A stretch of 63,994 nucleotides of DNA, counting the filler, from Collodictyon triciliatum (Eukaryota), in NCBI GenBank assembly GCA_043381765.1. It is 8 parts of 8 records of this genome, joined end to end, with 100 filler letters (N's around TTAATTAATTAA, not from the genome) between each part and the next. Parts side by side here need not be neighbours in the genome. Positions count along the whole stretch, not along the records: positions 36,586 to 45,100 come from JBHJMP010003395.1; 7 more parts are not named here. One strand, 5' to 3'. Made by a program: the position numbers and the translations under genes. Below, one piece after another: positions 8,529 to 62,445 of this stretch. Positions within the stretch are counted from its first letter, which is position 1. The number at the start of each line of letters is the position of its first letter. The notes beneath the pieces were generated by a model that saw only the letters and a program-made list of their open reading frames with translations, made no database searches and had not been told where the DNA came from.

Positions 8529-8628
8529 NNNNNNNNNNNNNNNNNNNNNNNNNNNNNNNNNNNNNNNNNNNNTTAATTAATTAANNNNNNNNNNNNNNNN
8601 NNNNNNNNNNNNNNNNNNNNNNNNNNNN
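8529..8628. other. Artificial contig linker (N44-TTAATTAATTAA-N44); identical linkers at 19246-19345, 27868-27967, 36486-36585, 45101-45200, 53714-53813, 62325-62424
   Basis: Exactly 100 nt each with a six-frame-stop core; five consecutive contigs between linkers are 8522, 8518, 8515, 8513 and 8511 nt (length-sorted). Confidence 0.98.
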
Positions 8629-19245: not shown

Positions 19246-20133
19246 NNNNNNNNNNNNNNNNNNNNNNNNNNNNNNNNNNNNNNNNNNNNTTAATTAATTA
19301 ANNNNNNNNNNNNNNNNNNNNNNNNNNNNNNNNNNNNNNNNNNNNTGTCTTTTTTCTTTTGTCTTTTGTCTTTTGTCTTTTGTCTTTTGTCTTTTGTCTT
19401 TTGTCTTTTGTCTTTTGTCTTATTTTCTATTTTTTTTTTCATTTCTTTTCATCTCATCTTATTGTCTGTTATCATGTTATTTTTTGCTCCTTGGGAAGTT
19501 CCATAAATTAAATACGCTTTCCCTGCCATACCATCACCTGATTTCGAAAGAAACCCATGAATAGTTTTCATGCCACGAAGAAATCTATCAAGTTGGGAGC
19601 ATTTGCAGCACTTAATGGAATATGAGAATAGCTACCCATTTCCGACAAGTAGTTTTTACGCAGCCTTGGTCAGCACTCTTCTTTTTTTTTTTTTTGCATT
19701 GTTATTTTTATTCACATTTTATTTAATTTTTTAATACTTAAAATTGGTAAATATTTTCTACATCTTCATCCATCCGACGAAGCAGCCTTCATACCCTGCT
19801 TCACAAGTAAAATCCAATGCAGCAGAGTCAAATGGTATTGTCTAGCTTTTCTTTTCGTTTTATTCTCTGTGTTGCTCTACACATTCCTCTTTTTCTCAAT
19901 GATTACCATTTATTTATGGCGTGCTCCCTTTCGATTCCCTATCCTATATTTCATTTGTTCCCTCTTTTTTCTGCTTCATATGTTTTAATGAAAGAATTTA
20001 TTTCGCGGTACGATGCGGCAATAAACCCATAGCCAATGGAGAAAAGGTTCCCATAAGGTGAGGAATGCGTGTTTATATATCTCTGGCTCAAGATCGGCTA
20101 ATATCCTCATATCTAATCCTACCCGCCAGAGGC

Positions 20134-27864: not shown

Positions 27865-27967
27865 TTTNNNNNNNNNNNNNNNNNNNNNNNNNNNNNNNNN
27901 NNNNNNNNNNNTTAATTAATTAANNNNNNNNNNNNNNNNNNNNNNNNNNNNNNNNNNNNNNNNNNNN

Positions 27968-36335: not shown

Positions 36336-36585
36336 TTAAAGATCGGTCGAGCCTCATATTTGAAATATGCATCCCCAGTTAGAAGGTCTTTTTTCTCTTT
36401 TTTCTCTTTTTTCTCTTTTTTCTCTTTTTTCTCTTTTTTCTCTTTTTTCTCTTTTTTCTCTTTTTTCTCTTTTTTTCTCTTTTTTNNNNNNNNNNNNNNN
36501 NNNNNNNNNNNNNNNNNNNNNNNNNNNNNTTAATTAATTAANNNNNNNNNNNNNNNNNNNNNNNNNNNNNNNNNNNNNNNNNNNN

Positions 36586-37005
36586 TAACATAGGAGGCCT
36601 CAAGGCAGTCTTCGTTACTTATCCGAAAGGATACTCCAAATCGAAGGCAACACAAGAACCAGCGCCCACCAAAGATAGTCCGTTTATCCTTCCCCAGCCC
36701 GTCGCACCGGGAACCAAGGAGCAAGAGCAAACACCACAAGTCGAATCTAAGCTTGGAACTTCACACACCAAAGACAATCCGAGCAAGCAGGAGCGTATGT
36801 TTCTAAAACCAAAACGCGTATCCATACTCCGGTTAAGCAAAGTCCACAGCCGGCTACGCATGTTTCCGAAACCAGGGGATGGTCAAGTGCCACTTCCGAT
36901 AATTCCAGACAAACAACGATGTATCGCTTTTTGACTGAGTCGCCCAGTAAGAAACGCAAGGAAAATGACCCGATGTCCCCTCAAAAGACTCATCCTATGG
37001 AATGA
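36586..37005 (+). other. Coding-like fragment at a contig start, ending in a PIP-box-like motif plus basic cluster
   Basis: Two overlapping open frames (NIGGLKAVFVTYPKGY...; ...RQTTMYRFLTESPSKKRKENDPMSPQKTHPME*). How they join (intron or frameshift) is unresolved. Confidence 0.3.
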
Positions 37006-37738
37006 AATAGGATGTAAACCTTGTCTGAGATAGACAGTTGAAAGGACTCGTCGGAATCGATTTGAGAAGTAACTGCCATGTGCGTACTTTCATCGACCCG
37101 ACAACTATATCTGCTCTTCTGTCAGTCTCTAACACAAACAAAAATCGCATTGGAGCTCATTCACCTCGGGTAGAATAGTCTGCGTGTGAGAACACTTTCT
37201 CTCCTTTCTATTTTCTTTTTCCTTTTTTTTTCTTTCCACCCAAAACACAATACCTCCAACCACACAATCCGGGGTTTTCCATTGTCTCGTCCACAGCTCA
37301 TTTCTTGTCCTAGAGGCGAAGGCGGTTTCCTCGGCTATGTTTTCTCTCGATAAACTGTTGAAATGAAACCAACAAATGATATGCGGCACATTCTTTACTT
37401 TTCCTTCCATTCCAATTCCTTCGGTTTATTCTTTTTTTGTGTTTGTTTGTTTGTTTGTGTTGTTTTGTTTTGTTTGTGCTCTCGATTCACATCTTTGGCG
37501 TAGAAACCAGAAATGATGAGGAGCTTCCGAAGGGATGATGCATCATACGGAGAATGGAGCGCGGAAGGGGATTGAAGGACTTGCAGGAAAGCGTGTTAAT
37601 CCCTCCGATGAAATAGTCGCGGCATCTATGGTAAATTCCCTGGCTTAGGACTAATCCTTCATTTTCATCATTTTCTTCATTTTCCATCATTTTCCATCTC
37701 TTTCATCATTATTTTCCCTTTCACTTGCCTACTCACTA

Positions 37739-40636
37739 TTAGACGGCGACAAAGTAGACAGCACCGCGGTTTTCGCCACCCACGCTATCATACGGAGCGC
37801 CCACAGTGATACCGTCGTCGTTTGTAGCCACGCTGATTCCGAACGAGTCTGCCCCATTTTGCACTCCGAAGCTGTACTTTTTCTGCTCCCAACTGCCTCC
37901 AACATTCTGGAACACATAAACAGACGTCGGCGCTGCAAAACAAGGTAAGGCAACATTGTAAGACTCCACGTGACATTAAATAAAAAAAAAAATTCATGCA
38001 AAGGACCGAAAGACAAGGCGCCTATGCGAACAAACGTCGAAGAATGGGGAAAGGAAAATGTTGAAATCAGAAGGGAAAAAAGAAGAGGCAGTAAAATAGT
38101 AAAATGCCATGCTCAAAATTAGATGTATCGGGTGGTATAATTCACTCACCATTTCCGGTGCAGTAGGCGCAGCCATAGTATGGCGATGACCCGACAACGA
38201 GATATTGTTTCTTTGAATTGTATGCTACGGACGCTCCAAAGTATCCAGTCGGGTCTCCGTCATATGGTGAGATGCGACTGGCTTCGTAGAATTGGTTCTC
38301 TGCGTCCAGCAAGTAATGGGAGACAGTCCCAGAGGTCGGTGGGTAAGACAAGTCATACGACGTGGCGAATAGACTGGTTCCTTCGAATACCAATCCGTAG
38401 CCCAGCAGCGAATAGCCGCTCAACTCTGCGGTGATGGTCTGGGTGAGCACGGCTGAGGTAATACCCTTGTGTGAGTAGACATAGAGCCGTCCATACGAAG
38501 AGCCGGTGGACACAACGATAATTCGGTTACTCGTGGCTACAGTTGACCCGAAGCCGATGCCGTCCTCGCTGGTAGGGCATGCGATTTCAAGGCTGCGGGG
38601 TCCATTTGTCTTGTCCATCGACCTTGGATAGTGGAAAACATACACGCGTCCTTTGTACTGGGATTCACCCACATTAGCGAACGGAGAGGATATGACGGTG
38701 AAGTTGCCGTCCATGGCAAGGCTCTGTCCAAAGTACTGGTACGCTTGGCCCAAGGGAGACGACACCGAAAACTTACGCACGTATCTCCCATGGCTTGGTG
38801 AGTAGCGGAATCCGTAAACGGTAGACTCTTCAATCCCAGAAGTGGAGCCGTAGAGAGCCTGCGATGTCACCAGAACCCATCCATTCTTGACAAGGACGGT
38901 TGTTCCAAAGCGAGAGTAGGCAACACGCCCCAGGTACTGGAAGTATTGCACGAGGCGCCATTCATCAGAGGAGGAGTCCACCAAGTAGACTTTCCCACAG
39001 GGCTTGTCGTATTGGCTCTTTTCAGAACAGGCTGGCTGTGCAATAGCTACGATGGTGCCCTCAGCTGAGACAGAGGACCCTAGATTGTTTGACTTTCCAT
39101 ATATGTTATGGTAGAAGCGACCGTTGCTGGGGAGAGCTGTGTATTGATGTCAAGTTAGTCGTGCACGATTAGTGGCTAATATTAACTGAATTCAACATGT
39201 CTATGTGAAAGTGGTCAACATTATTAAAAAAAAAAAGTACATATATATTAGGCTGGGAGCATGGCTTGCATGCATCACAAATAGGGTGGCATTTAGTCGC
39301 TATAACTTCTTTTCTTTTTCTTTTTTTTGGCCATTATGAGAGGCATTCAATTACCTTGGTTTGCAGCAAAAGTGAACACAGCTCCTGCAGGATAGCCCTG
39401 GTCGTAAGGTGCTCCATCCGAAATGAAGACTTCGTTCCCACGAATATAGACATTGTTTCCAAACGTACCATCTGGTCTGGCCTCGCTTGGTGCCGCTATC
39501 TTGTAAGGTGCAGACCACTCACTATCAGACAGTTTGAATATGACTGCAGTTTGGGTGCTTGAATCACCAGCAACAAGATAGGATCCCGAGAACGCAAGAT
39601 TGGAACCAAGTGAGAGTGTCGATGGGGCGGTCAGAATATTGCTTTGACTCCAGCCATACGAGTAGGTGTATGAGAATATGAAAATGGACGACAGACCAGG
39701 GCAGCCCAAGGCGATAGTGTTGTCAGATGCGATGGCGGCAGAATAACCCAAATAGGTATAGTCCACAGGGTTATTGGCACCCAACCTGAATAGGCTATAC
39801 TGGTTGATATCATTGCCGCTCCTTGGCCATACATAAGCCGCGCCTTGTCCATTCGCTTCGCCGTGGGAACCAGCTAAAACCCAAGCAGATCCGATGTCTA
39901 GGGAATTGCGATAGTATAGATACGAATATGTTCCGTAAAGTGTAGTATAATAGGAGTAATATCCGTTGGTCCAATACCCATCAGTCCAGTAACCATCCAC
40001 CCAATAACCCTCCACCCAACCCCAGTACGACCAATAGCCATTCACCCAGTATCCATCAGTCCAGAATCCATCAACCCAGTATCCTTCATTCCAGGTATAT
40101 GCCACGAGAGAACCCGATGGGTTGAAGGTTCCAGCCAACAGAAGATCTCCATCTATGGCAAGGTTTCCTCCGAGATATGTGTTCCAACTACTCCCAGAGA
40201 AGCTATTCGCGTAGACCCAGGTGTTATTTTGCAAAACAAAAACGTAGACTGTACCATACTGGCTATTGTCCAACGGAGCCCCAACCATCAGGCGGTCATC
40301 AGCAACAGCCACGGCCGACCCAAAGTAAACGTACGAATTGCGGTTGGGTGAGGTCAGTTTGGAATGATAAGACCATTGGGTATTGTTGCGTGAGAAGACA
40401 GAGACTGATCCAGCGTCGGTTATCCATCCATCGATATCATCATATGATGAGCCGATAGCCAGAAATGCCCCATTAGGAGACATGGAAATACTGCCGCCGA
40501 ATTCTGAGTTGTAGCCAACACCCGAGTCAGGAACAATCTTGTTAAGGTACTGAACAGATTGCCCCAAGGTGGAGAGAGGACTGGTGATAAAGATCACGAT
40601 CACGATGGCAGCAAAGGCTGCAAGTTTAACTCGCAT
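37739..40636 (-). CDS. Secreted FG-GAP repeat (integrin-alpha-like beta-propeller) protein, about two propellers, 3 exons
   Basis: Signal peptide MRVKLAAFAAIVIVIFITSPLSTLG; repeats FGGSISMS...LAIGS...GSVSVF, YFGSAVAV...MVGAPLD...GTVYVF, YFGQSLAMDG...GRVYVF, SFGISVA...TVGAPYD...GAVYF; no TM segment seen. Confidence 0.88.
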
Positions 40637-42035
40637 GGCTTTACCTACTAGACTTTCCTGCGGGTTAAAAGGGTTACTTTTTTAGATTCTGTGTGGTGTT
40701 GATTTCGTACCTTATAAGAATAGAGCAAGTGGCAAGATCATTTGACAGTAGTCGCGCTGGTGATGCTTTGTTGTTTTTCTTCCTTTTCATCTCTATTTCT
40801 TCTTTTTTTTCTTCTTTTCTTTTTCTTCTTTTTCTTCTTTTTCTTCTTTTTCTTCTTTTTCTTCTTTTTCTTCTTTTTCTTCTTTTTCTTCTTTTCCTTC
40901 TTTTCCTTCTTTTCCTTCTTTCCTCTTTTTCTTCTTTTTCTTCTTTCCTCTTTTTCTTCTTTTTCTTCTTTTCTTTTTTTTCTTTTTCTTCTTTTCTTCT
41001 TTTTCTTCTTTTTCTTCTTTTCCTTCTTTTCCTTCTTTCCTCTTTTCTTTTTTTCTTTGCTGCCGTGGAATGCTGATTCATCTTGTGTTTGTCTCCTCTG
41101 TGCGCCTGATGGAGCCCGCCGTGGAAAAGAGGTGTCCAGTCAATAACGGGAAGTGGCGGTCGCTATTTGTAGCACAAGAGAAAGCCCGTTGGTTGCTTAA
41201 TGCGTCCGTTGGATGCCAAATGCGTATTTGAATAATTCCACACTTATTGTGGAAAGTAAAATAATGAAGTCCATTGACATTGTATAAAGGTATTTGTCCT
41301 AATCACTTATAGGATTATGATAGATATATGCGGGATAAACATTGTATAGGTATTGTAAGAGTTGGACACCTAATTCATTGTAAGCAGACAAATATCCCGA
41401 ATGTGGAGCAACTATGTCGGGTAAGTGCCTGGTAGATTAGGGCGCGTCTCCACCGATGAATCATGGCTGACGAAAGAAAGAGCTTTGACGAATCCAAGAA
41501 ACAACCTGAGTAATATAATGGTACGATTGGTATATATAGTAAGGTTAAAAATACTTAAAAATTTCATTCTATTCCTATAATCAATTTACATTTTATTTTC
41601 CATTATGTAACATTATCATTAATATTAAAATTCAAAGATTACGAACAAGCCCTTACCTTTGCCAGACAGAAACCACGCTATAAACCTTCCGCCAAGCATC
41701 CATTTCAAAAAAGCGTACTATCCACACTTGCGGCGGTAATCATGTTGTTTGGGGCCGATGTGTTGACTTTCAGTCGCAATGGCTATACGGCCGTCCTTTC
41801 GAACTCGCCGAATCGGCTCTCAGCGTTTTGTCTCAAATCACTTGCATAAATAACTTTGTGTGCTTATTTGCCACAAGCACACATTTTGAAAGTCCTGGTA
41901 GATGCTTGATTTTACACGAATGGATTTTAAGCAGTTGTATTTATTAAATTATTAAATTGACTTATAGACTTAAGTTTTATTAAAATTGAAAACTCGGTAG
42001 TTTTCTAAAGGAAAAAGTAAAACAAAGCCTTTCAG

Positions 42036-43935
42036 ATGAAGAAAAGAAAACGTCTTGAGTCTGAGAATTTAAAGTCTGTAAAACTACACTATCGAAATGT
42101 GAAAACGTCTTTAAAGTCGATTGTAAAGAATGCGAATGACTAAGACAAAATCAACGGTGCGGTTTTATTGTGTCATTATTTGGTTACCTACACTTATCTG
42201 TTTGCAAGATGTTACAAATTGAAATCACAACAGCTCTCAATAATCGATGAAATGTATTTTTGTACGCTTTAAAGACAGTAAGAATAGTTTCACAAGATAG
42301 ACCCGCACGATTAAAAAAAAAAACCAGATATGAGTAAAGACTGATGATTTTTTCTCTGATTTTCGATTCCTTTTGTCCCGAGAAGAACACTTTCCGTTGG
42401 TTGGACAGTCTCATCTATTACCGTACTTGGCGAAGCGAATGTTGACAGCTTATCGTAACAACATTAAGGAACATTTTGTAAAGAGGTTACTGCGCTTTAT
42501 AAATCAAACAGTTCCTAAAGATGAGAATATTACTAAAGCTATTAAAGAGGCAGAGTTACAAAAGTTAAAAAAAAAAAAAAAGAGCCATCTTCAAGAAACT
42601 CGAAATACCGGAACAATATAAAGGATGGAATATAACGCGTCAGCATCATATCATTCCCAGCGATATTGTAAAAGGTATCGAATATGACACTAAAATTTAT
42701 CAAAATAAGTACATATCATGCCTGATTTACATGAATCGCATTTTTTGGGGCATTGGAACCAAACTGTTTTAACCAATCCCTATAAGAACTAACAATATAC
42801 CATGTCATATTAATCTAGATACCGCATGTTTGATACATATTATTATTATTATCATCTGAAAAACATCATTACTGAAGAGCACATCAGGGTGTAAAGAGAC
42901 CCTATGGGATAACTTCTATGCAATAAAGAGAGGGTCTTTCATCAAAGAGAGACTACAATTTTAAATACATGATACAAACAGACGGCTTGGCGGTGTCATT
43001 ATTGTTTGAAAAGATAGGTATTTCAAATCCAAAATCCAAATACAATCAAAACAAACTCAAGAATGTGTTTATATAAATGAGCTTTCCGAAGAGCAGCTAT
43101 CATTTTAAGCGAAAAAATATAGTTTGGAGTGGACGCAGGCAAGTTTAATTTGGTTATATAGTGGATAAGATAGTTAAGAAATTACGTTACACGGCACACA
43201 AAACAAGACATGATAACAAACCTCTTAAAAATCACAAAATACTCTCGCGTGATAAAAAAGAGTACAATTCTTCAGGGATATACGTGGCAACAGGTTTACA
43301 AAGTGCTATTTATTTTTGTTGCATGAATTTTGAAGAGAATCAGCAGCTTGAGACATCAAGAGTATCTTAAATCGATTCAGATACAAAATTGAGTAAACAT
43401 AATTCATGGACGCTCGACTATGAAAAATTTCGAAAATATGTACCTATGAAATCAAGATACCAGGTAGAATTATCCAGATTTTATAAACAAGTAACTTTTC
43501 GAAAGATGAGATGGAGACAGTATGTTAATACAAAAAGAAGGGAACAATTGATTATGAACCGAATTGAAAAGACATTTGGCAAGGATGTTGTACTGGCGTA
43601 AGGAGACTGGAGCAGAAAATCTCCGATGAAACGTTTTATGCCAACAATCGGAAGAGGATTACGAAAAATAGTATCTAAACGTTTTGAAGCAGTCAGTGTA
43701 GATGAATTTAGAACCTCCAAGATGTGTTTCAACTGCGTAAAAGAACAGGATTATATGACACTGAAAGGAAATTCAAAGAAAGGTGTATAGATGTCTCATA
43801 TGTAAAGGATGCAATCGCTCAGAAAGCAAACAAAGTGTATTCTTGACAAGGGACTTTAACAGTGCTAATGATATACTCAACGAAGTTCTTTCAATTATTG
43901 AAAACAAATATACACACCTTTCTTTAAAAAACAGG
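42036..43935 (+). pseudogene. Fanzor1: Decayed Fanzor1 (eukaryotic TnpB/IS200-IS605-derived RNA-guided RuvC nuclease)
   Basis: Across frameshifts: VKTSLKSIV; YLAKRMLTAYRNNIKEHFVKRLLRFIN; IPIRTNNIPCHINLDT; MIQTDGLAVSLLF; RuvC-I GVDAGK (D at 43132); FRKMRWRQY; LA*GDWS; PTIGRGLRK; RuvC-II VDEFRTSKMC (E at 43704); zinc finger CFNC...CKGC; RuvC-III RDFNSANDI (D at 43852). Several in-frame stops and indels. Confidence 0.88.
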
Positions 43936-44623
43936 TTGTTGAGTCTTTTCTTGCAGTCTTCATCACTACACGATCTTTTGAAAAAAGTGATGAGACCTTG
44001 GATACTAGCGACCAGGTTTGTCAATCGAATGATTGGTGAGCTCCTTTTAGTATTCATTATTAAACGCAGCAAACGCTCACACACAAAGCGACACGTAACC
44101 TCCAATCAGGGCACTCAGTTTGCTTCTGACGGCTCTTTCGAGCAATCAAGTAAGTGCAGCCATGAAGATGGCCAAAATAAGAGAAGATAAAAGCCACCGG
44201 ACTTCCGTACTTTATTGCTGCTCTTATTGTCACAGCGTCCGTTCAGCAGGCACATAAAAAGAAAGAAGCATAATATCTTCCAGTCACATCGCACTTTGTG
44301 AAGCGGAAAGGAACCTCTGCACCTGACACGATATAAGAGATTCATTGGGCAGCTCGCTCCAAAAGAAAAGGCACGGTTGCCTCTGCATTGCTTGTCCACT
44401 TTGCACCGAAACTCAACTCTTGCGCATATAGTCCTGCACTTTGTCCACCTCTACTGCGCTTCCCGGCCAAAACATCAGGGGGCACTTGCTGCTTTCCCGC
44501 TTGGACTCGCAGCTGCTTCGTGATTATTTGGCACACAGACCACAGGCCAAAGTATCAACAAAAACAACTACAGCAATAACCCGGCAAGCTTGAAGGCGAA
44601 CCGCTTGTTCTACAGAAGGCTTC

Positions 44624-44925
44624 ATGTCTGCCGATGCCTACACGCAAAATGCAAACTCCATGCACAGTGGAGGCGCAGACTTGTCAAGACAACAGCAGAA
44701 ACAGACGCTTTTGAAAGTGCTTTCGACCTGCTTGCAGCTGAGCATTCCCATCCTTGCTGGCTTATTCTGCGCCTTGGGCACAGTTTTTCTTTACAAAGTC
44801 ATCTTGAGATCAGACGAGTTTCCTGCGGAGGATGGGTATGAAAGTCTAGGCTCTGGCGATCAGATTAAGAAGTTGCTGGAAGAGCTGGCGCAGAACGCAA
44901 GTATCCCGCAATATCCCCCGAAAAG
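44624..44925 (+). CDS. First exon of an unknown protein with one N-proximal hydrophobic helix; truncated by the contig end
   Basis: MSADAYTQ...IPILAGLFCALGTVFLYKVIL...; ends at an AG|GTGAG donor followed by an (ATGTCT)n tract. Confidence 0.45.
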
Positions 44926-45200
44926 GTGAGGACCACTAGTTGGTAGCCTATATATTAACATTTACATTCACATTCACACGGGCCATGATTATGTCTATGT
45001 CTATGTCTATGTCTATGTCTATGTCTATGTCTATGTCTATGTCTATGTCTATGTCTATGTCTATGTCTATGTCTATGTCTATGTCTATGTCTATGTCTAT
45101 NNNNNNNNNNNNNNNNNNNNNNNNNNNNNNNNNNNNNNNNNNNNTTAATTAATTAANNNNNNNNNNNNNNNNNNNNNNNNNNNNNNNNNNNNNNNNNNNN

Positions 45201-46335: not shown

Positions 46336-49300
46336 CTAGGCCGAGTTTTGAGAGTCCGGTTCATCACACGAAAAAGATGGAGATTGAGTTGAATTGTAAA
46401 GGCGTGATAAATGAATATGTTCTGTCGGAGATGGATTTGAAGAGTTGTCACCAACAACGATTTGCAGTGGCTCAAAGTTCTGGCTATTCAAGTTGTGTAA
46501 AAGCGAAGCGCCGGATAGATTTTCCGAGAGATTTTGCTCACGAACGACGATAACATTTCTTTTAATTCTCCTCATATAGAGCAGGAATGCTAGTGAAATG
46601 AGCGTGACAGCAGATACGCAAACGATTCCTCCGATAATTATTGCCCAAAGACCGCTAGAAACATCATTTTCGTCTCTTTGATTTGTCATATGCAACGTTT
46701 TGGACCGAATGTGAGGTTCGCTATTAAAATTATTTGATTGTACTCTAGAATGAAGCTTTGTGTTTGGTTTGCTCCTTGATTGGTACCTAGATACTGACCT
46801 ATATGATGTGGTAGAAATAGAACTTTCGTTATTGGATTTAATATGGACTTTTTTCTCTAAAATGCTGGCAAAAGTTGATATCAAGTAGCATTTACAAACA
46901 ACTCTTTCTTCATCATAGCTCAACAACTGACACCCATCTTTGCTCCAGAGTTGACTCGTAAAATTGTAATTTATGCAAGCAGGCGCGTAACGATCAAAAT
47001 CCAAGCTATTTGGACTGGAAATAGAAAGTGATACATATACTGGGCTTTTCATTCTGTTTGGTGTCATATTGCTTGCAATAAACTCAGATAATTCTAGAAA
47101 TACTTCTAAAATGGCAGAACTGATGTTTGGATGAAAGGTGTAGGAATTGAACAGAGTGTTCGACACGTGAATGACTGGGTTGCTAAGGTTGGTGTACACT
47201 TCCCGACTCAAGATGATTCCAGGATTTCCATCAGCTGGAGCTACAACCAGATGGGGTTCATTATCGGGGCACTGTTTATAAGAAGCTACTTGAAGCAGTT
47301 TTGATGAAGCCAAGTACCCAATATCTCCACAAAGCTGGAAATTTATATTTGATATAGCAATCAACTTTGCTGATTTTTTAGCTTTGTGTAGGATATTCTT
47401 TGGGTCTGCAAATCCTACTTGATACCGTTTAGGTAGTCTCAGAGCTGAGTTGAAGATATTTGTGAAGGCATGAAGCAAAGAAGTTCCCGTATTCTCTAGA
47501 ACAGAAGTAGCAGTTGCTGCTTCTGTATAATATATAAATTAATGAAATTATGTTATCTTAATTACAAAATTTTGCAAGTTGAGTTAAAGGTGAAAAAATG
47601 ACAAAAAAAACATGTTACCCGCTAAAATCGTGAGATAATCAGTGGCATTGGAAATCAATGTTTGATTCATGCAAGAGTCTCCTAGAATGGCTGAGAATAG
47701 TTGTATATTCGAATCAGTTTGGGTTGATGAGTAGAATTGCTGCTTGGAATTAGTTGTTTTCATTAAGAAGAAAGCTTTGAATCTGGTGCTTGAGGCCAAA
47801 ATTTGGGCCAATGTGCAAGGACTCTGTTGATTCCTTTTAAAAAAAGTCTGATTCCTTTCAGATAACATCGAATTTATAATGTCCATGCAGCTTGCGCAGT
47901 ATTGAGTAACTATGTCATAATTTCCTTGCTCAAAAGCACTATTCATCTGTTCGGTCACGATGGAATCGGCAGAAGAGGCTCTTTCCGAGTCATCAAGAAA
48001 CTTCAGAGAGGTGACATTTACCAATTTTTCTAACCTTACGAAGTTGCCGTTTACATCAGATATGTATATAACTCCTTTGAGTAATGTCATTCCTGGTGCA
48101 GCACCACTCATTTTTCCTTCGGGCATTATGATTGTCCGTATAGAAGAAGGTGCGTATGGTGAGACAATTTGGTCGAATCCGTCATCCGTGAGCACATAAC
48201 CGAATGCGTATGACAAAGGATAATTGAAATCGAACGTTTGCCATCCTTTGGCTTCGAAAGTAAATGGAGACAATTGTTCACCGCCATTCGAAGGACACTC
48301 AAACGTCCCACCGAATGGTAGTATATTTGTTTTAAATGATATCTCGGACATACCATTGATATTTCTATAAGTGTCTGTGGCTATGAGGGTTATTTTGTAT
48401 AAGGTGTTGTCTTTCAGCCTGTATGGGGGTATTGAAATCCTGGGATTCTTCAAGTCTGCTAAATTTATCCCCAAATCCAAAAATGAAGAAGTTCCACCGC
48501 TGATCTTCCAGGAATAGCTCAAAACATTGTTTGTTGCGTAGGCTGCATATCCAGATATTCTCAAGGTGGATGAAACAGACGGATACTCCTGCTCCAGAGG
48601 TAAGATATTGACAACTGGAGGGTCTTGCTGGACGACGACTATAATTTTTGAAGCAAAAGCTGGAACATATGCACCACTTGATTTAGATAAAATAAGTTCA
48701 AACAAATAAGTACCTGGATTCAAGGTAGGAATATCTCCACTTTGTCTTATTTTGATAACACTTGTGTCTGGAAAAATGATTTGGGTGTTGTTTGTGGCAT
48801 ATAAACATGGGAGCATCGAAGTCATGTTTCTACAAGACCATTGATATTTCATGGATAGATAATCCTGTATTTGTACTTCAGGGTCGAATGATATAGAGGC
48901 GTCTACTTCAAAATCCTTGACACATCCGGCAACACCTGCTGTGCCTCCAACTATAAGGGCTCTTAGTCCACCAGACAAGCCTTCAATCATAACTTCAGCA
49001 AAATTACAAGCTTCTCCACCTTCGCGTAAAGGTATGCAGCCAGTCAGTCTGAAGTTGTATTTTTTAAATGGAGCCAAGGAAAAAGGTGTCAATGTCAGCG
49101 TATTTGTGTTTTTTAAGACAGGGTTTAACCTAATTGCATCTCCTGATGTTTGTTCCCACAAGAAATTTATTGAAGAGCCATTGAGACACTTTGGAATTAA
49201 TCCTATTCCTTTTAAAGTTGTATATTTGGATGGAAGTGCATACTGTAATCGCGAACCACCAATTGTGATTGTCGGAAAGGCATCGCTCAACTTCTGAACC

Positions 49301-52300
49301 ACTATACTACCTGATGTTGACAATCCAAAAGGTGTTTTAATGGTCAATGTAAAGTTATAAGTAAATCCTGGGGTAAGTTCATCATTCATATAGAGAAACT
49401 CTCGTGATTTACGAATAGCCAACATCGTAATATTCATGAAATGATCTGGAAGTGGTGGAGATGAAGTAAAATTCCACTTGTAATCAATATTGAGACATTT
49501 GTTATTTATTAATTTTGTCGGTGATGAATCCAAATACAAGGGAGAGCACCTGCTAATCCTTTGAGGACCTGATATACTTACTACTATTGAGACTAGCGAA
49601 ACTGGCATCTGGGTCACGTAGGAGCCTGAACTGGTTGGGAACCAGAAACACCCGTACTTGACGCGAATCTTGTTTCTTTTCAAGGTAATATTCATTCCTA
49701 TAGTTACTAATGGAGAACATGCTGTTTCAAGCACTAACTTTTTGTCTGTTTCCCATTTACAACGGAATGTCTCCATACCCACTAGAAGCTCACTGCAATC
49801 AAAATCCGAGGTAAAGCCTCCCATATCAGTTGATTTGTCGAAAATGATTATTATTTGATGGCCATACTCACCGAAAATAGCGGATATCACGCTTGGTGCT
49901 TCTATGTATGTCTTATTTTCGATTCCAAAGGTTAGAAAGGCCTTCGGAATATCTCCTTGGCCTCTGTAATAATCTACTTTTCTTTCAAGGGCGGATTTTC
50001 CTTCACTATCGTAGGTTATAATGGAAAAAGAAATGCCTATAGACTTCTCAAAACTCTGTGCTTGCAACTGACAACTAAATTCATGTCCTACCAGCATCGG
50101 TCTGACACGAAACCCGTATTCATAATCCAGAGTTCGTGCTCCTAGTATCACTTTCATATCCTTATTTTTTTTCGTAACTATGTCTATATAAACATCGAGC
50201 TTCGATGTTGAATTCATTCCGAAGATGTCTTTTGGTGCAATTTTGAATTGAGGGATACAATCATATCCTGGAATAAAAGAAAAGGACGTGTCAATGAATC
50301 TCCATTTTCTTGAGAGGACACGCAGCAAAAAGATAGCATCTGCAACACCTATTTTTCCATCTTCATTTGCATCTAGCCATTTCATTTGATAATTCTCCAG
50401 AGGATGTTTTATTAAATTAGCTATGTACATCACAGCAAATTGTACGTCAGAAATCGAGAACTCACAATCTCCGTTCGTGTTTCCTCTTATTGATTCTGGA
50501 GCACATGATGACTTTTTTGGCTCTACTGATGATAAGTTGTTGATTAAATTTGATGTATTTTGATCGTGCTTCAAATATGATCTTTGGTATCCTATTTGAA
50601 GGAATCCAGAGCCCGCTACTATTTCGCGAGATTTCAATGCAGTGGGGTATGCTCCTATCGGATTTGATTCCAAACCCGACTCCACCAAACTGTTCACCCG
50701 ACCAGTAATCAACACTTGGCCGTTCTTAAGAGCTTTAAATCGAATCTGCGCAATGTTAAGTCTTTTTCCATAAACGTGTGAGCCCACTGCAGTTACTCCA
50801 ACTATCTTGATTTTACCTGCAGGGTCATTCAAAGTTATCTCTATTTGTCCACCTGGCCAGTCCTTTCCAACTTGAGAACTGATAGCGCTTAAATAGTTTG
50901 CATCGAAAATTATATCAATATCAAAAGCCCCAAGAATTTGACTCCCAGTATTAATATAAATTGGTATGTCATGTTCTGAGTTTGGTTCCATTTTATCGTA
51001 TTGAAGACCATCTGGGTTTCCAATATCGATATCTCCGACATCTGGCTCCAGGTTTGAGTATACTTGAAAATATTGGGCTATTATATTACATGCAGAAACT
51101 TTAAATGAAAAAGAGTAAGGGCTGTTTCCTTGCACTATGACCGCTCTTGATTTTAAGTCGACATATGCACTGGAAGGATGGGATGATTCAAACGAAAGAA
51201 ATCCTTCTAAGTCATTTGCTTTTTTGTAAACAGTTTGGTCTTCAAATACAGCAGTCACATCGAACTGTGGGATTGCATACCCTTTCACTCCTTTGAATGT
51301 GAGTGGTACGTTTGCGCTTATATTTTTGACAGATATGTAGTCTGATAAGACGGACAACATAAATTTTTCTGACTTTTTAGAAGCAAACCTTCCAATGATT
51401 GCCACTGTACCCGCATTATTAGAGTTTGGTCTGACAATATTACCATCTATAGCAATAATGTCACTTCCCTCTCCTTCATCAAGCTCATAGGTGACGAAAT
51501 TTGCTGTTGATGATATTTCTGTAACTCTTCCACTAGAAATTTGCATAAAAAGTCTAAGAATAGCCTTTTGATATGTTGAAGTACAGTGTATTCTCCTAAG
51601 AGAATTAATTGATTTCAAATCAGAGGATGGATATGTAGGATACGGATTTGCATCAATAAATAATTTTTTGTGTGATACAACTTCAACAATCAGTTCAACT
51701 GATGGTAACCCAGGGTGAGCAGGTATACTGATGATAATTGTTGCATTTCCGATGCTCGATTCGATAGCCTTAACAGCAACTGAATTTTCTTCATGAGTGT
51801 CATTTTCAACTATCATGACTAAGTTGATTGAATTAGGGTGTATTCTGTAGAAAACCTGATGGTTCATGGAGTAGTCTATTTCTTGGCCATTTTCGAAAAT
51901 AGCCTTTATGAAAATTGGCAAGGATGTGGGTATGCCAATAAGAGATGATACGTCTGACTCACTTGTCAGTAAATATCCATTCTTTGTGTATGCTCTTATA
52001 CTTGAAATTTTTGGTAGTTTCAAGTTTAATAGCGCATGTCCCGATTTTATTTCCACTCCACAAGTCTTCCAAGATGCACGGATATGGTACCCACAAGATG
52101 ATTCCCTGGCTATTACACACGAACCATTCTTCAAGACCTCTATTGATGAATCCAACGACACGATATCTAAACCTGCCTCTTGATTGATTTCCATTTTTCT
52201 GCCGTCAGAGAACAATGCATATGCAACCACGTATCCAACCTGGTTGACGTTGGTAAAATTTTGGAAGACACTGGCAATAGCCGCTCCAATTTCGTTTGAT

Positions 52301-53713
52301 TTATATCCTTCAATTTCTTTGTCTATTTGGGATATAGTTATATTCGTAAAAACTGCTGCTTCAATATCTTTAACATGGACATAATCGGAAGAGACGGTTA
52401 ACACTACCACATTTGAATTTATCAATTTTGCCGAAATTTTAGTGTCTCCGGGTGACTGGCCCTGAATTTCATATCCAGATACAAAAGCAACACTTTCTTC
52501 GGATGATATAATGGGCACATGGGGTGTTACATCAACTGATACTATATCAGTATCACTTTTTAATCTTGCCTGTATTCGATATGCCGTCTTTTGATATATC
52601 TCTTGTCTACATGAAGCATTTAAAGTTCCATTTATAGCGAAAAGCTTACTAGTATCTAGAATCAATTGAACGGGCCGCAACGGAATCCAAATTCTAATTG
52701 TCGTCTTATAGTCCTTTATTCTAATGATCAAATAACCTCCAATAGTTTCTCTTCCGGTTAGTATTAAAGTACAACCAGCTACCGAAGACATAGTTGTGTC
52801 ACTAATCATACATGCGGCGGACGATGAAATATCAACTTTTCCTCTGATTCCCCAAATTTCGTACACAAAAATGGGTATGTTAATTTTAATCCCATTCATA
52901 ACGGCTGTATTCAATACTTCTGACACACTCGGTGTCAAATAGTAACCGCGGATGGAATCATATAATATTGCAACAGTACCAGGGTCTTTTGAACCTTCTG
53001 AATCACGAACAATACCATCTATTTCGAACGGGAGTATAGAGACAGCTTGAATGTCAGACATTTCGGGTATGGTGAAGGATATAGCTGCTAAGTTTCTAGT
53101 GATATCTAAATTTTCGTCTATTTCCCATGTCATCAATAAAGCGTCTTTGATAGCACCTCTTGTCTTGCTAACATTACATGACTCATACTTCAAACCAACC
53201 ACGGAAACAGGTTGTTCGTTAAGGTTTGCGGTAACTGAGTACTTTTCCCCACCATGTATATTTTTTATTCTAATTATTTGGGAATCAAAGTATATATTTA
53301 ACTTAAAGCCCTGTAAAATTGTTTCTCCTGTAATGGCGTCAATAGTTGCCGAAAAAGTGCTGCCATGCGTTACCGGTGAAGTTGGTAAGTTCATTATCAT
53401 TCCGATTTTCTGCTCTGAAAAAGAATTGGGTATCTTCTTTGCTCTTATCTTTTCTAATTCGATCAAATATCCGTCGATGGAGAGAATAGGTGTCAGGTAA
53501 TTGTCTGATGCGGTTGAAAAAAAGTAATCAAGATTCCTGAGGGTGAGAAGACATGTGTTTACACCATCGCTTATGCAAGAATCGGAAACTGTTGGAAATT
53601 CTTTGAAATAGGCCAATATGCGCCCTCCGCTGGTAATTGTTTCTCCTTTTGGTCCGACAAGCCATGCGTGTATTTTCACGGGATTTTCTCCTTTGTAAAT
53701 ATCTGAAGAGGAC
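46336..53713 (-). CDS. Giant single-pass surface protein: TMEM132-like cohesin+Ig region, cohesin, dockerin, REJ module, GAIN/GPS, TM helix, short tail; 5'-truncated, one intron (47523-47618)
   Basis: 2031-aa ORF spliced in phase to the 380-aa ORF. TMEM132-like IWIPLRPVQLILD...YQKT...VDVTP...ALFSDG; cohesin IPIYINTGSQILGAFDIDIIFD...LNIAQIRFKA; dockerin GNTNGDCEFSISD...LDANEDGKIGVADAIFLLRVL; REJ VDASISFDPE...YQWSC, PFGGTFEC...GWQ...PLSYAF; GPS CINYN...WSKDGC...CKCYLISTFA; TM GLWAIIIGGIVCVSAVTLISLAFLLYM followed by RRIKR. Confidence 0.85.
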
Positions 53714-54053
53714 NNNNNNNNNNNNNNNNNNNNNNNNNNNNNNNNNNNNNNNNNNNNTTAATTAATTAANNNNNNNNNNNNNNNNNNNNNNNNNNNNNNN
53801 NNNNNNNNNNNNNTCTCTTTCTCTTTCTCTTTCTCTTTCTCTTTCTCTTTCTCTTTCTCTTTCTCTTTCTCTTTCTCTTTCTCTTTCTCTTTCTCTTTCT
53901 CCTTCTCTTTCTGCTGAGAACAACTTTGTAATTTTTTTCTTGTCTCTGCCACGTGTCAAAATTTAATTATCAAACCTAATATGATGTCGTACTCTATTCC
54001 TTGTCAATAATGATGATAATAATACCTAATTAAAGAACAAGAGAAAAAGAGAC

Positions 54054-57390: not shown

Positions 57391-60365
57391 CTATTTGGGC
57401 AGATTGGCCGGGACGTAGACGCACCCGAATCTCGAGACTGTGGCCGGCGAAGCCTTTTGGAAGTTCTCCGCTTCGACAAAGATCTTGACGTTTGCGGGGA
57501 CATCGATGCGGTCGCCGTTCATCAAGCACAAGACGCGGTTGTCATCCAACACAGTGTTGAGATATTCGGCCCACTCGTAGTGGCAGACACCGTCAAAGAC
57601 GAGCCACTTTAAACCGCTGCGGTCGGAAGCATTAAAGCGTCGAAGTGTGGACGGCACAATCCCGTCCTTCCAGGTGCTGTCAGACGGGTCAAATGACCCA
57701 AACAACTCTCCAAGACTCACCGACATCGGGTCCACGCTGAACGCATCCACTGGCGCCGCTCCTTTCACAATGACGCCTTTCCCGTGCAGGAGATTATAGG
57801 CAGCTTCAAGCACGCGGTAGCAGCTGGTTTTCCCACTGCCAGAGGGCCCCACCAACGCAACACCGTGGCGGGTTTGAATCGCAGAATGCACTTGCAAGAC
57901 TTTAGTCACAAACTCTGGCGAGGCTTTTAGATTCATCTGCCCCAAAACTTCGTGAACAGCATCGGTCAACGCGGCGATGTCTGAATCCTGGGGAATTGTG
58001 ACTCCTGCAAAGAGTTGCTGAAACAGAGATTCATACGCTTCGGCACCGTCCTCGGTGATTCTCGGGCGGTTTACGGAATCAAACGCCTTTGCCAAAATTA
58101 CTTCTTCGGGTTGGTCAGGCATGTCCTTTCGGAGCTTCTCAGCTAGAGTCACCACAGATTTGAAGCTTCTCATCCCGAAGTCGTAATGGTCCTTTCTGGA
58201 GAATTGCAGCAATGCGGTGCGCGCTTGCCCCATTTTCTGACCAAGCATCTTGCCCTCTTCGAACCCGCACAAGTGGAGCATTCCCTCAGTTAGGACGGAC
58301 ATTTCAGGAATGGAAACGGAGTGCGCTATTATAAGCTCCTTCATAACGGTCTTTGGGTCAGACTCTGGCTTGAAGCCCGGATTCATGGTAGCAAAGGTCC
58401 CAGTGAAAGGGTGGATTGTGATGAGCTTGCCCATAAAAGTCGTGGACTTGGAGCCAGCTTCTGATGCAGCTTTAATTGTTCCAATTTGCTTTGTCAACTC
58501 GATGGTGGTAAATTCGGTGATTCTGTTGAGCTCATCAAAATTTATCCAAGTTCCGCTCTGGATGGCTCCTTTAAGATAATGACCAAGCATAATATGGTCC
58601 ACTCCTTCGCTCATATTGATGGTGATGAGAGAACGACCGCAAAATCGCGCAAAATCTTTTATGGTCTCATTCTTCCCAGAACCAGCGGGGCCAGACAATA
58701 ACCCAATGGTGTGTGTATGGACAGCTTTGGAAAGAAGTTCTTGATAGGAATGTGTCGCTTGTTGTTTCACAAGGCTCGGTTCAGAACCAAGGAATTCATA
58801 TCCGTACGGGAGGGTCACATCGCCAGACCTAACTTGGACTCTTTCGTGTTCAGAATCCCAAACGTATCGCGTGCATTTGGCCCAGTATGACTGAGCAGTG
58901 CTGATAGACTCATGGTTATGCATTTCAGAGATGGTGTCCATTAAAAAGGACAATGAAATAATCGCAGAAGACAAAATGTTCTTTTGGGCGATTGTCCAAG
59001 TCTGTCTCGCCAGTCGAATAAGCCCCACATGAAGTTGTCGGTACTTTTTGAGCAGTTCTTGTAATGATTCCTTGGGGTTAGAGCTTTGGAGAGAAGTATC
59101 AACTTGCGCACTCCAGTCCAGCTCTGCAACAACAAGAGAGACTTGGCCAATGTATTTGAAAATCCACTCGTTGAGCTCGGATTCTTGGTAGCCTTGCTTT
59201 GCCTTGAGTATGAGCTCATGGATTGATTCAATCTGTGCATTCATGATTTGTTGGAAGAACTCGCTGAGCTTGTGGTTGTACTTGACAGGTGTCTTGAACT
59301 TTAGCTCATCTCCATGGACAGAGACCATGGAAAGGATATCATTTGTACCCTCGCTGAATCCGAAATGGCTGAGGTTCTCAAAAACTCTTGCACCAAGGGA
59401 AGAGATAGACCCGCGCTCATCACGGGTTCCGATCATATGTATGAGTTCATCATTACTGACAAAAAAGAACCTGGGGAAATCGCCTCGAATGGCTGAAAGG
59501 TAGTCCATGGTCTCATCAACAATCGTCTGCATGGTGGCAACATGCTTTTCCAGAAGGGTGGTGACTGCAGCGTCTTCAATAATCTACTTCCAGGATTTTT
59601 TATTTGGAATTATTTGTATGCTGTTTCCACTTAGTGACAGTATCTGTTTTCTGAAAAAAAAATTTTCGAGATAACACTATTAAAAAAAAAAACATGAAGA
59701 CTGGATGAGAAATAAGGAAGGACCTTAGGTAATGATTTCTTCTCTTTTAACGCCTCGAAAGTAGCGGCTATCTCCGAGGCAATCATGTTGTATCTTTCAA
59801 ATAGACTTGGGAGGTCCTGTTGCAACAGCTTGTGCTTGTAAAAAGTGACAACACCATTCAAGTTTGTTTGGAGCGAAGCGCAATGCCCCAGGACCGCCAA
59901 AAGTTTGACGAGCTCGTTTTTAATTCCCACTGCTTCCTATATATAATTGAAATATGAAAGAGTGACTTTAGACTGTGCCAGCACTGAGAGAAAAAAGTGA
60001 AATATAATAGAAGACACCTGTGAATTCTCGGATGTCGGGGGATTTAGAAGAAAAAAAAAAGAAGGGAAAGGAAGGAAGTTCACTGTGGCGTGAGGAGCAT
60101 CTGGAGCGGCAGAGAGGGACGAAAGGGTGCTGATGTCGGACTCAGCTCGCTCGGACGTATCTTCGAGAGAGGCGATGACTTGGATTGGGAGATCTCTGGC
60201 TTGTGTCAGCTCCAGAACCCAGCTTTTCCAGAAGCTGTCAATCTGCCAAAGGAAGAAAAAAGCAGGCGAAGGGCGTCAACTTATCGCAGGAAGACGGGGC
60301 GTAAAGGAGAAGGGTAGAACCTCTTCGAAAGTGGCCGGCTTAGTGGAGGTGGGGCTTGCGGACAT
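57391..60365 (-). CDS. Truncated dynein-heavy-chain-like protein (~869 aa): DHC linker + AAA1 + AAA2 only; exons 60365-60321, 60242-60084, 59936-59724, 59583-57391
   Basis: FPRFFFVSNDEL, YGYEFLG, GPAGSGKNETIKD, WINFDELNRI, FATMNPG, HYDFGMRSFKSV, RHGVALVGPSGSGKT, ELFG...WKDG, WLVFDG, LNTVLDDNRVLCL, ASPATVSR then TAG. GCCATG start, three in-phase GT-AG introns, AATAAA ~40 nt after the stop. Confidence 0.88.
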
Positions 60366-62324: not shown

Positions 62325-62445
62325 NNNNNNNNNNNNNNNNNNNNNNNNNNNNNNNNNNNNNNNNNNNNTTAATTAATTAANNNNNNNNNNNNNNNNNNNN
62401 NNNNNNNNNNNNNNNNNNNNNNNNTATTTATTTATTTATTTATTT

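Follow-up and report, generated by a model that had tools for sequence, protein, structure and literature searches.

A probable Fanzor1 pseudogene in the Collodictyon triciliatum genome and its relatives on giant-virus contigs

What is the series of interrupted reading frames that begins at position 42036 in a stretch of DNA from Collodictyon triciliatum, and where did it come from? Fanzors are eukaryotic RNA-guided nucleases and candidates for compact genome editing; those of the Fanzor1 type are borne by transposons of eukaryotes and giant viruses. The stretch analysed here (assembly GCA_043381765.1, 63,994 nucleotides (nt); hereafter the window) had been annotated before in a sequence-only reading, which took positions 42036-43935 for a Fanzor1 relic. 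In our analysis the locus is, with a probability of about 0.93, a dead copy (pseudogene) of a Fanzor1 gene extending over 42036-43967 on the plus strand. The Fanzor1 identity proposed earlier was borne out by matches in the PDB, by a family profile and by the predicted fold of an intact relative; its start coordinate stands whereas its end does not, as the homology continues for about 30 nt beyond 43935.

Damage and motifs of the relic

A chain of short open frames runs on the plus strand from 42036, and their translations resemble one protein in pieces. The damage was mapped in a frameshift-aware protein-to-DNA alignment with P0002, an intact metagenomic protein of 648 amino acids (aa), as the query. 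The relic was found to be colinear with residues 1-642 of P0002 from 42036 to 43967, and 363 of the 631 aligned codons are identical (57.5%). A total of seventeen disabling lesions were found. Six are in-frame stops of the substitution type (42141, 42770, 42857, 43120, 43368 and 43599; four TAA, one TGA and one TAG), and the one occupying 43599-43601, a TAA, had been correctly located before. The other eleven are frameshifts, and the alignment also skips eleven residues and contains seven additional codons. It shows no gap of intron size, and the earlier impression that introns are not evident holds. Eight of the eleven residues that are invariant among 65 family members are kept, including the D, E and D of the catalytic centre, as are 14 of the 19 nearly invariant residues; the altered invariant positions are P365 (now A), E447 (now D) and N610 (now D).

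Such breaks could in principle belong to a functional gene whose apparent decay stems from errors in sequencing or assembly, from short introns or from non-standard decoding. Two of the eleven frameshifts do fall in error-prone poly-A runs (11 and 15 nt), and the assembly is fragmented, with contigs of ~8.5 kb, but we consider this explanation highly improbable. The remaining nine frameshifts are located outside long homopolymers, no insertion of intron size occurs in 1.9 kb, and the six stops face four different residues or positions of P0002 (Tyr, Gln, Leu and Tyr, or gaps), therefore one reassigned codon cannot account for them. The standard code reads through elsewhere in the window, in a 730-codon dynein exon and in an open reading frame (ORF) of 2,057 codons, and neither of the FG-GAP ORFs (335 and 444 aa) that share a contig with the relic is broken. 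Since the frameshifts lie mostly outside poly-A, the stops fit no single reassignment and the other ORFs are unbroken, the relic is truly broken. With its stops, its frameshifts and the loss of the invariant proline of the DPG motif and of two further invariants, the present copy cannot make the protein, and the word relic used in the earlier reading was justified.

Identity between the relic and P0002 depends on how conserved a column is in the family: it is lowest, at 40%, where conservation is weakest, reaches 92% in columns conserved at 0.5-0.8 and amounts to 82% where conservation is strongest. Because identity is high in conserved columns and low in variable ones, the ancestor was a constrained gene that decayed later, and most of the divergence dates from the time when both genes were under selection. 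Ten changes were counted in 56 highly conserved columns. As a rough, back-of-envelope measure, these would correspond to later neutral decay of ~8% per site, a level at which roughly six stops, the number observed, would be expected.

One segment that had been described as a possible insertion of ~100 nt requires a different explanation. Intact P0002 carries the same 35 residues in frame (411-445), where they form a low-pLDDT (predicted local distance difference test) loop in the AlphaFold model. The corresponding columns are occupied in 13% of 64 other family members and are absent from P0003, another relative. As judged by these aligned proteins, the segment is a lineage-specific loop inherited from the functional ancestor and not damage to a dead gene.

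The motifs identified along the relic are listed in Table 1. The basic N-terminus is a possible nuclear localisation signal, such signals having been reported at the N-termini of Fanzors (PMC10530073). Both N-terminal motifs noticed earlier, NNIKEHF and TDG, are present, and in the family profile T312 of the latter is invariant whereas D313 and G314 are conserved at 90% or more. Each of the three RuvC acidic residues named in the sequence-only reading (43132, 43704 and 43852) was confirmed at its coordinate, and the glutamate does stand just before the zinc finger: it lies within VDEFRTSKMCFNC, where FRTSKM is followed by CFNC, six residues upstream of the first CxxC, and corresponds to the family-invariant E555. 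PMC10711439 describes three marks of Fanzor1, namely a DPG motif, a TDG located in the WED domain and a glutamate that precedes the zinc finger by six residues; the term 'Ealt' for this alternative RuvC-II glutamate also comes from that source. A related motif, D-X-[TS][TS]-X-X-C4-X-RD, is described in PMC3627910. The DPG fingerprint was not found at RuvC-I, since the invariant proline is replaced by alanine at 43135-43137 and the relic reads DAG. As DPG is complete in P0002, and neither D364 nor P365 varies among the 65 family members, the ancestor had DPG and the present copy has lost the proline. From the first CxxC onwards the order CFNC...CLIC(KGC)...RDFNSAN is kept, a C4 zinc finger followed by the RD of RuvC-III, across one frameshift; directly after RDFNSAN, the codon at 43870-43872 for the family-invariant asparagine N610 now encodes aspartate.

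Table 1. Coordinates of the annotated features, counted along the window
Feature	Position	Strand	Basis or remark
Contig of the relic, 8,515 nt	36586..45100	.	flanked by artificial N44-TTAATTAATTAA-N44 linkers; sole DNA physically linked to the relic
Two tandem FG-GAP_2 repeat ORFs	38145-39149 and 39350-40681	-	Pfam
Fanzor1 pseudogene (very probable)	42036..43967	+	frameshift-aware alignment; tblastn in three frames; family hidden Markov model against the six-frame window
Start codon and basic N-terminus MKKRKR	42036..42053	+	sequence; P0002 N-terminus identical
NNIKEHF motif, REC region	42457..42477	+	sequence; N145 nearly invariant in the family
TDG motif (IQTDGLAVS), WED domain, Fanzor1 hallmark	42978..42986	+	sequence
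RuvC-I segment GVDAGKFNL	43126..43152	+	catalytic Asp GAC at 43132-43134
Lineage-specific in-frame insert, ~35 codons	43270..43374	+	P0002 residues 411-445; one stop, at 43368
GDWS segment at the canonical TnpB glutamate site	43602..43613	+	directly after stop 43599-43601; G521 invariant
RuvC-II alternative Glu GAA and first CxxC	43704..43736	+	Glu 43704-43706; CFNC 43725-43736
Second zinc-finger half CLICKGC	43792..43812	+	CxxC CLIC 43792-43803; other frame, past a frameshift near 43779
RuvC-III segment RDFNSAN	43849..43869	+	catalytic Asp GAC at 43852-43854

Placement within the Fanzor1 family

Membership was first of all visible in a 139-residue translation of a piece of the relic (P0001, with one stop read through as X). 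Five PDB sequences were matched at an expectation value (E) of 10 or less, three of them being PpFz1 of Parasitella (9.5e-11), SpuFz1 of Spizellomyces (1e-7) and GtFz1 of Guillardia (1.5e-5); the two beyond Fanzor1 are at chance level (0.33 and 0.36). Two relatives of P0001 were found among 56 longer candidate proteins, P0002 (648 aa, 64% identical) and P0003 (653 aa, 44% identical), and the precomputed Pfam label of both is PF26935, named DUF8286 in ESM-Atlas. Searched against the PDB, P0002 matched GtFz1 (2.1e-28), PpFz1 (2.7e-24) and SpuFz1 (3.7e-23) and no Fanzor2, TnpB or Cas12 chain at E<=1, the two further rows being myoglobins (0.38 and 0.62). The family is large: among 1.84 billion cluster representatives, 3,147 relatives were found at E<=1e-3 and 537 at E<=1e-30. 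A profile built from the 65 full-length family members (A1) matched SpuFz1 at 2.4e-104 over positions 11-597 of 608, PpFz1 at 9.3e-103 and GtFz1 at 1.9e-81. Beyond Fanzor1 its next match (1e-4) is confined to the zinc-finger stretch, as is that to ISDra2 TnpB (0.34). In the six-frame translation of the window the profile found only the relic locus, in all three plus frames (8.9e-72, 1.1e-27, 5.3e-13 and 2.5e-10), the rest being at 0.078 or above.

The predicted structure of P0002 gives the same picture. The AlphaFold (AF2) model has a pLDDT of 87.9 and a predicted template modelling (TM) score of 0.86, with long helices at 460-481 and 484-512. In a Foldseek search with this model the top seven matches are all Fanzor1 (SpuFz, PpFz and GtFz; E 2e-28 to 9e-24, TM 0.63-0.82), and on SpuFz it superposes with TM 0.76/0.81. 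Matches outside Fanzor1, to Cas12o (1e-6, TM 0.24), Cas12X, Cas12f, ApmFz2 and TnpB (6e-4), are about twenty orders weaker and do not exceed a TM of 0.36. As modelled, P0002, the closest intact relative, has the Fanzor1 fold.

These results also decide whether the locus could instead descend from a prokaryote-type TnpB, a Fanzor2 or a Cas12-like gene. The RuvC and zinc-finger core is common to all of them, and a weak match to Pfam Cas12f1-like_TNB (E 0.036 on the relic, 1.4e-7 on P0003) points the same way; even so, we regard such an origin as so improbable that it can be set aside. The sequence and fold comparisons above both favour Fanzor1 by a wide distance, the TnpB models of NCBIfam are silent, and the locus has both the TDG motif and a long REC region. 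Prokaryotic TnpB of the IS200/IS605 and IS607 types was rejected as a candidate on three observations: no NCBIfam family was found, the family motif is DPG, and the canonical glutamate position, taken as about 50 residues upstream of the zinc finger, reads GDWS. According to PMC10711439, TnpB has its glutamate at this canonical position and a D-hydrophobic-G motif. Fanzor2 was likewise rejected, with ApmFz2 (9b0l) reaching TM 0.21/0.27 at E 9.5e-5 against 2e-28 for Fanzor1 and giving no sequence match at E<=1.

The Fanzor1 ancestor of the relic encoded a protein of ~650 aa with a basic N-terminus, REC and WED domains carrying TDG, a RuvC split into three parts (Asp, alternative Glu, Asp) and a C4 zinc finger. 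By analogy with its homologues SpuFz1, GtFz1 and PpFz1, the ancestral protein would have bound an omegaRNA produced by transcription of the 3' end of the mobile element that carried its gene, and would have cut double-stranded DNA at guide-complementary sites beside a short adjacent motif. We infer this nuclease activity from homology and motifs seen in the sequence and from the fold of the P0002 model.

Viral relatives and the origin of the relic

Relatives of the family were found in viral sequence data. P0002 searched alone against viral contigs found no relative, and against metagenome contigs it found one distant locus, L001, at 21% identity. Scanning IMG/VR with a ten-row alignment matched at least 599 stretches, of which at least 452 encode a relative; the best 80 loci were kept and, together with L001, make up the 81 loci compared here. 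Many of the IMG/VR loci are from records named GVMAG. The best viral locus among the matches listed, L002, is 47% identical to P0002, and the ESM-Atlas clusters nearest to the family are 92-100% Viruses, most commonly Nucleocytoviricota. ORFs are intact, at about 575-640 aa, in nearly all viral loci kept, and one locus is cut at its start.

All-against-all blastn comparisons of the viral contigs revealed a shared unit of ~2.4 kb, consisting of ~470 nt, the ORF and ~190 nt, with a few pairs sharing 3.4-3.7 kb. One subfamily (L040, L043, L059, L042 and L052) has terminal inverted repeats (TIRs) of ~27 nt at both ends of the unit, around 2530 and 4910. The left one reads TTACACC(C/T)TT...ATTTAAAACGCCG (TTACACCCTT...) and the right one CGGCGTTTTAAAT...AAGGGTGTAA in these five loci. 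A second subfamily (L069, L065, L020, L024 and L077) has the same right end and a different left end, with at most a degenerate repeat. GGTGTA is invariant at the right end (48 of 48). The CACC...GGTG ends are flanked by an invariant TA, which would fit a Mariner-type TA duplication if it lies outside the element, but may instead belong to the TIR itself.

Just after the viral ORFs lies a conserved RNA of ~170 nt with compensating stems (for example L040:4743-4910 and L020:4743-4904, alignment A3), one stem being CACATCTTC...GAAGATG in one case and CACCTGTTC...GAACAGG in another. In its last stem an internal TTTTACA(C/T)(C/T)TTT pairs with the right TIR, which agrees with the published role of TIRs as part of the Fanzor1 guide-RNA scaffold (PMC10711439). 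A covariance model of this RNA, R1, found it just after the Fanzor ORF in L001 (4.9e-10), L005 (8e-6), L002 (1.1e-5) and L003 (2e-5). This covarying RNA is a ready-made candidate omegaRNA family for the viral Fanzor1s. A partner transposase was not found in the two viral loci scanned, where upstream ORFs of 465 and 493 aa belong to no Pfam family. In the 5' part of the shared unit, on the opposite strand, L020 (2522-2866) and L034 (2543-2875) have an ORF of 111-115 aa with C2H2 zinc-finger motifs (zf-met, 3.5e-6), and another viral subfamily has in its place a short forward ORF starting MNIEELINK.

Kinship was examined in a quick maximum likelihood tree of 79 rows (LG+G4, with support from the Shimodaira-Hasegawa-like approximate likelihood-ratio test only, and midpoint drawing of an unrooted tree). 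The relic pairs with P0002 (support 100), and both fall in a clade of seven rows (support 97) with P0014, P0004 and the viral L002, L003 and L004. This clade adjoins one of 26 rows, in which 16 of the 20 viral rows fall. No taxon is attached to the 58 metagenomic rows. What the tree shows is kinship of the sequences with giant-virus copies, and it gives no direction of transfer.

The relic belongs to a subfamily of Fanzor1, Pfam DUF8286, and giant-virus contigs carry the nearest members that have a label. On the simplest account it would be what is left of such a ~2.4 kb element that inserted into the nuclear genome of a eukaryote and decayed. Exchange of Fanzor1 elements between giant viruses and their hosts has already been described (10.1101/2024.09.03.611062; PMC3627910). 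The element could have been resident as a transposon, or a giant virus could have delivered it, as an endogenised fragment or by a hop during infection; the latter is compatible with the pseudogene reading and is a possibility of some weight, although we place it short of even odds. In its favour are the 97-supported clade shared with three viral loci, one of which (L004) is from a record named GVMAG, the viral make-up of the nearest ESM-Atlas clusters and the documented sharing of Fanzor1 between viruses and hosts: a fragment in the Chlamydomonas host genome shares 80% identity with an element of the giant virus endogenous to that host (10.1101/2024.09.03.611062), and HMa-1 of Hydra is suspected to be viral (PMC3627910). 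Against it, no viral hallmark gene was found on the 8.5-kb contig and the FG-GAP neighbour has no close relative among the viral contigs searched, P0002 and most family representatives carry no taxon so that eukaryotic members may be equally close, the unrooted tree leaves the direction of transfer undecided, and at the DNA level the viral loci resemble the relic only within its coding part, at 43150-43866 (37 matches at 65-81% identity among the 81 loci).

A more specific proposal, which we advance tentatively and hold to be somewhat unlikely as a whole, is that the relic and P0002 represent an uncharacterised Fanzor1 sublineage, with the 35-residue loop, a long spacer from the zinc finger to RuvC-III and a guide RNA unlike the common giant-virus type, that moved between a giant virus and the lineage of this eukaryote and of which intact, possibly active copies with their own omegaRNA persist in the host or its virus. 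Two facts fit it, the nearest labelled kin being viral and the three members of the P0002 cluster lying on contigs of 2,610, 2,597 and 945 nt, sizes that suggest a repeated mobile unit of about 2.6 kb. A further incomplete copy of the relic's sublineage may exist in a sequenced genome: P0005, a fragment of 291 aa that is 82% identical to residues 138-409 of P0002, is annotated by NCBI and JGI as a hypothetical protein and lies on a contig of 11.1 kb.

Several results weigh against reading the locus as a decayed Fanzor1 element. No Pfam family was found for P0002 and no NCBIfam family for P0001-P0004, and on the nine stop-free pieces of the relic that were scanned, the Cas12f1-like_TNB match remained below threshold at 14.7 bits with a cut-off of 26.3. 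P0001 likewise has no Pfam family. Three other sub-threshold matches on these pieces, DUF5958 (0.0021), PAS_6 (0.016) and PSD5 (0.095), were taken as chance and rejected. Thus, of the profile matches anticipated in the sequence-only reading, those to Fanzor-specific profiles and structures were obtained, whereas the prokaryotic TnpB models of NCBIfam and the Pfam model did not reach significance; this is expected because Fanzor1 is divergent from TnpB. A transposase domain is absent from the ten flanking ORFs scanned on the relic's contig, and TIRs were not found at the relic, the best flank-to-flank inverted match scoring 20 against 20.9 +/- 2.2 in shuffles. A fuzzy search of the same contig for the viral TIR motifs found none. 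Searching the window for an omegaRNA with R1 gave none near the relic, its best matches having E of at least 0.21 and lying on other contigs, and the RNA folds are not unusual at 43880-44180 (z -1.05) or at 43760-43940 (z -1.43). Finally, the viral rows of the tree were selected by their likeness to P0002, so closeness to it is partly built in.

The lack of TIRs and of a transposase does not exclude Fanzor1, because the GtFz1, NlovFz2 and MmeFz2 loci likewise lack inverted repeats (PMC10432273), and R1 may simply not fit the relic's subfamily. Either decay or loss has removed the ends and the guide RNA of the relic, or other ends and another guide RNA are used in its sublineage. Nothing on the relic's contig corresponds to the upstream ORFs of the viral relatives, the small C2H2 zinc-finger ORF included (best E 0.14), and Rfam and tRNA scans of the window gave no matches. 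A 21-nt inverted repeat with 86% complementarity occurs within the 3' coding part of the relic (43772-43792 and 43908-43928). Its arms contain AAAGGTGTA and TACACACCTTT, which recall the core of the viral TIRs, and it was considered and rejected as an element end since it is intra-coding, is in reverse order and has a fold z of -1.43.

Surroundings of the relic and comparison with known systems

The window is joined from contigs that are unplaced scaffolds in descending order of size (8,522, 8,518, 8,515, 8,513 and 8,511 nt among them), with seven N44-TTAATTAATTAA-N44 spacers at 8529-8628, 19246-19345, 27868-27967, 36486-36585, 45101-45200, 53714-53813 and 62325-62424. As it is a chain of unlinked contigs, gene neighbourhood across the spacers is meaningless, and the polycystin-like and dynein genes described below are not neighbours of the relic. 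On the relic's own contig the larger FG-GAP ORF has a start resembling a signal peptide and a Trp/Tyr/Gly-rich repeat (GYWVDGYWTDGYW); no close relative was found in viral contigs, and the rest of the window has no paralogue of it. At 40730-41106 lies a long CT-rich microsatellite whose period is 9 nt, and an (ATGTCT)n run is found at the contig end, 44985-45100. The presence of CT-rich repeats like the former at the ends of other contigs argues that the relic's contig is part of the same eukaryotic genome, and such repeats probably explain the assembly breaks at contig ends. Sixteen sequencing runs were listed for the sequence, none of them from RNA and each with a share of 0.08 or less; they are no evidence of habitat or expression.

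On the other contigs, the uninterrupted 2,057-codon ORF (47587-53757, minus strand) has REJ and PKD-like domains and reaches the end of its contig, and it is followed on the same strand by an ORF with a GPS motif (46339-47538). Their domain content suggests a polycystin-1-like receptor gene with very long exons. That the assembly is eukaryotic and is read with the standard code is well supported by the 730-codon exon of a dynein heavy chain (57394-59583, minus strand; DHC_N2, AAA_6 and AAA_5).

The relic itself is an ordinary molecular fossil from a large and already described family. For Fanzors as a whole, 3,655 unique sequences have been catalogued (PMC10530073). As a decayed copy it adds one host locus and nothing usable, having no intact ORF and no guide RNA. 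Its value is that of a pointer, as it led to an intact relative of 648 aa and to a large family, represented on viral contigs by at least 452 loci; the sequence of these loci directly shows their shared units, their conserved right ends (inverted repeats in one subfamily) and their covarying 3' RNA. Because intact relatives exist in metagenomes and on giant-virus contigs, obtaining a working enzyme of this subfamily does not require a consensus of relics. The locus is also one more hint of element traffic between giant viruses and eukaryotic genomes.

Compared with the solved Fanzor1 structures, SpuFz1 (8gkh, 9ceu-9cez), PpFz1 (9cf0-9cf3) and GtFz1 (9cer-9cet), the relic's family shows homology over the full length and, through P0002, a similar fold. 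DPG (DAG in the relic, with the Asp kept), the glutamate before the zinc finger, the RD...N of RuvC-III and TDG are common to both. Differences are a Foldseek sequence identity of only 17-20%, the 35-residue loop of the relic and P0002, which lies between RuvC-I and the helical region, their longer spacer from the zinc finger to RuvC-III, and the broken state of the window copy, which has no recognisable omegaRNA. TnpB (ISDra2, 8h1j/8exa) and Fanzor2 (ApmFz2, 9b0l) have in common with the relic the RuvC D-E-D, the C4 zinc finger and the ancestry of RNA-guided nucleases, but neither gives a significant full-length sequence match and their TM scores are 0.20-0.33.

Among mobile elements, close parallels are the Fanzor1-only elements of Mariner type known from giant viruses and eukaryotes, namely PGv-1, PUl-4 and HMa-1 (PMC3627910). 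Like these, the viral relatives are short units, in one subfamily with ~27-nt TIRs and the invariant TA, and are Fanzor-only, with no transposase in the two loci scanned. No Mariner/Tc1 transposase was found, and the relic shows none of the viral ends. The Fanzor1s of the Chlamydomonas endogenous giant virus (10.1101/2024.09.03.611062) offer a similar range of full, Fanzor-only and degraded forms, together with a decayed copy in the host nucleus (chromosome 17). That case differs from ours in that donor and host share 80% DNA identity, whereas the relic has no known donor and the nearest viral protein, that of L002, reaches 47% identity to P0002.

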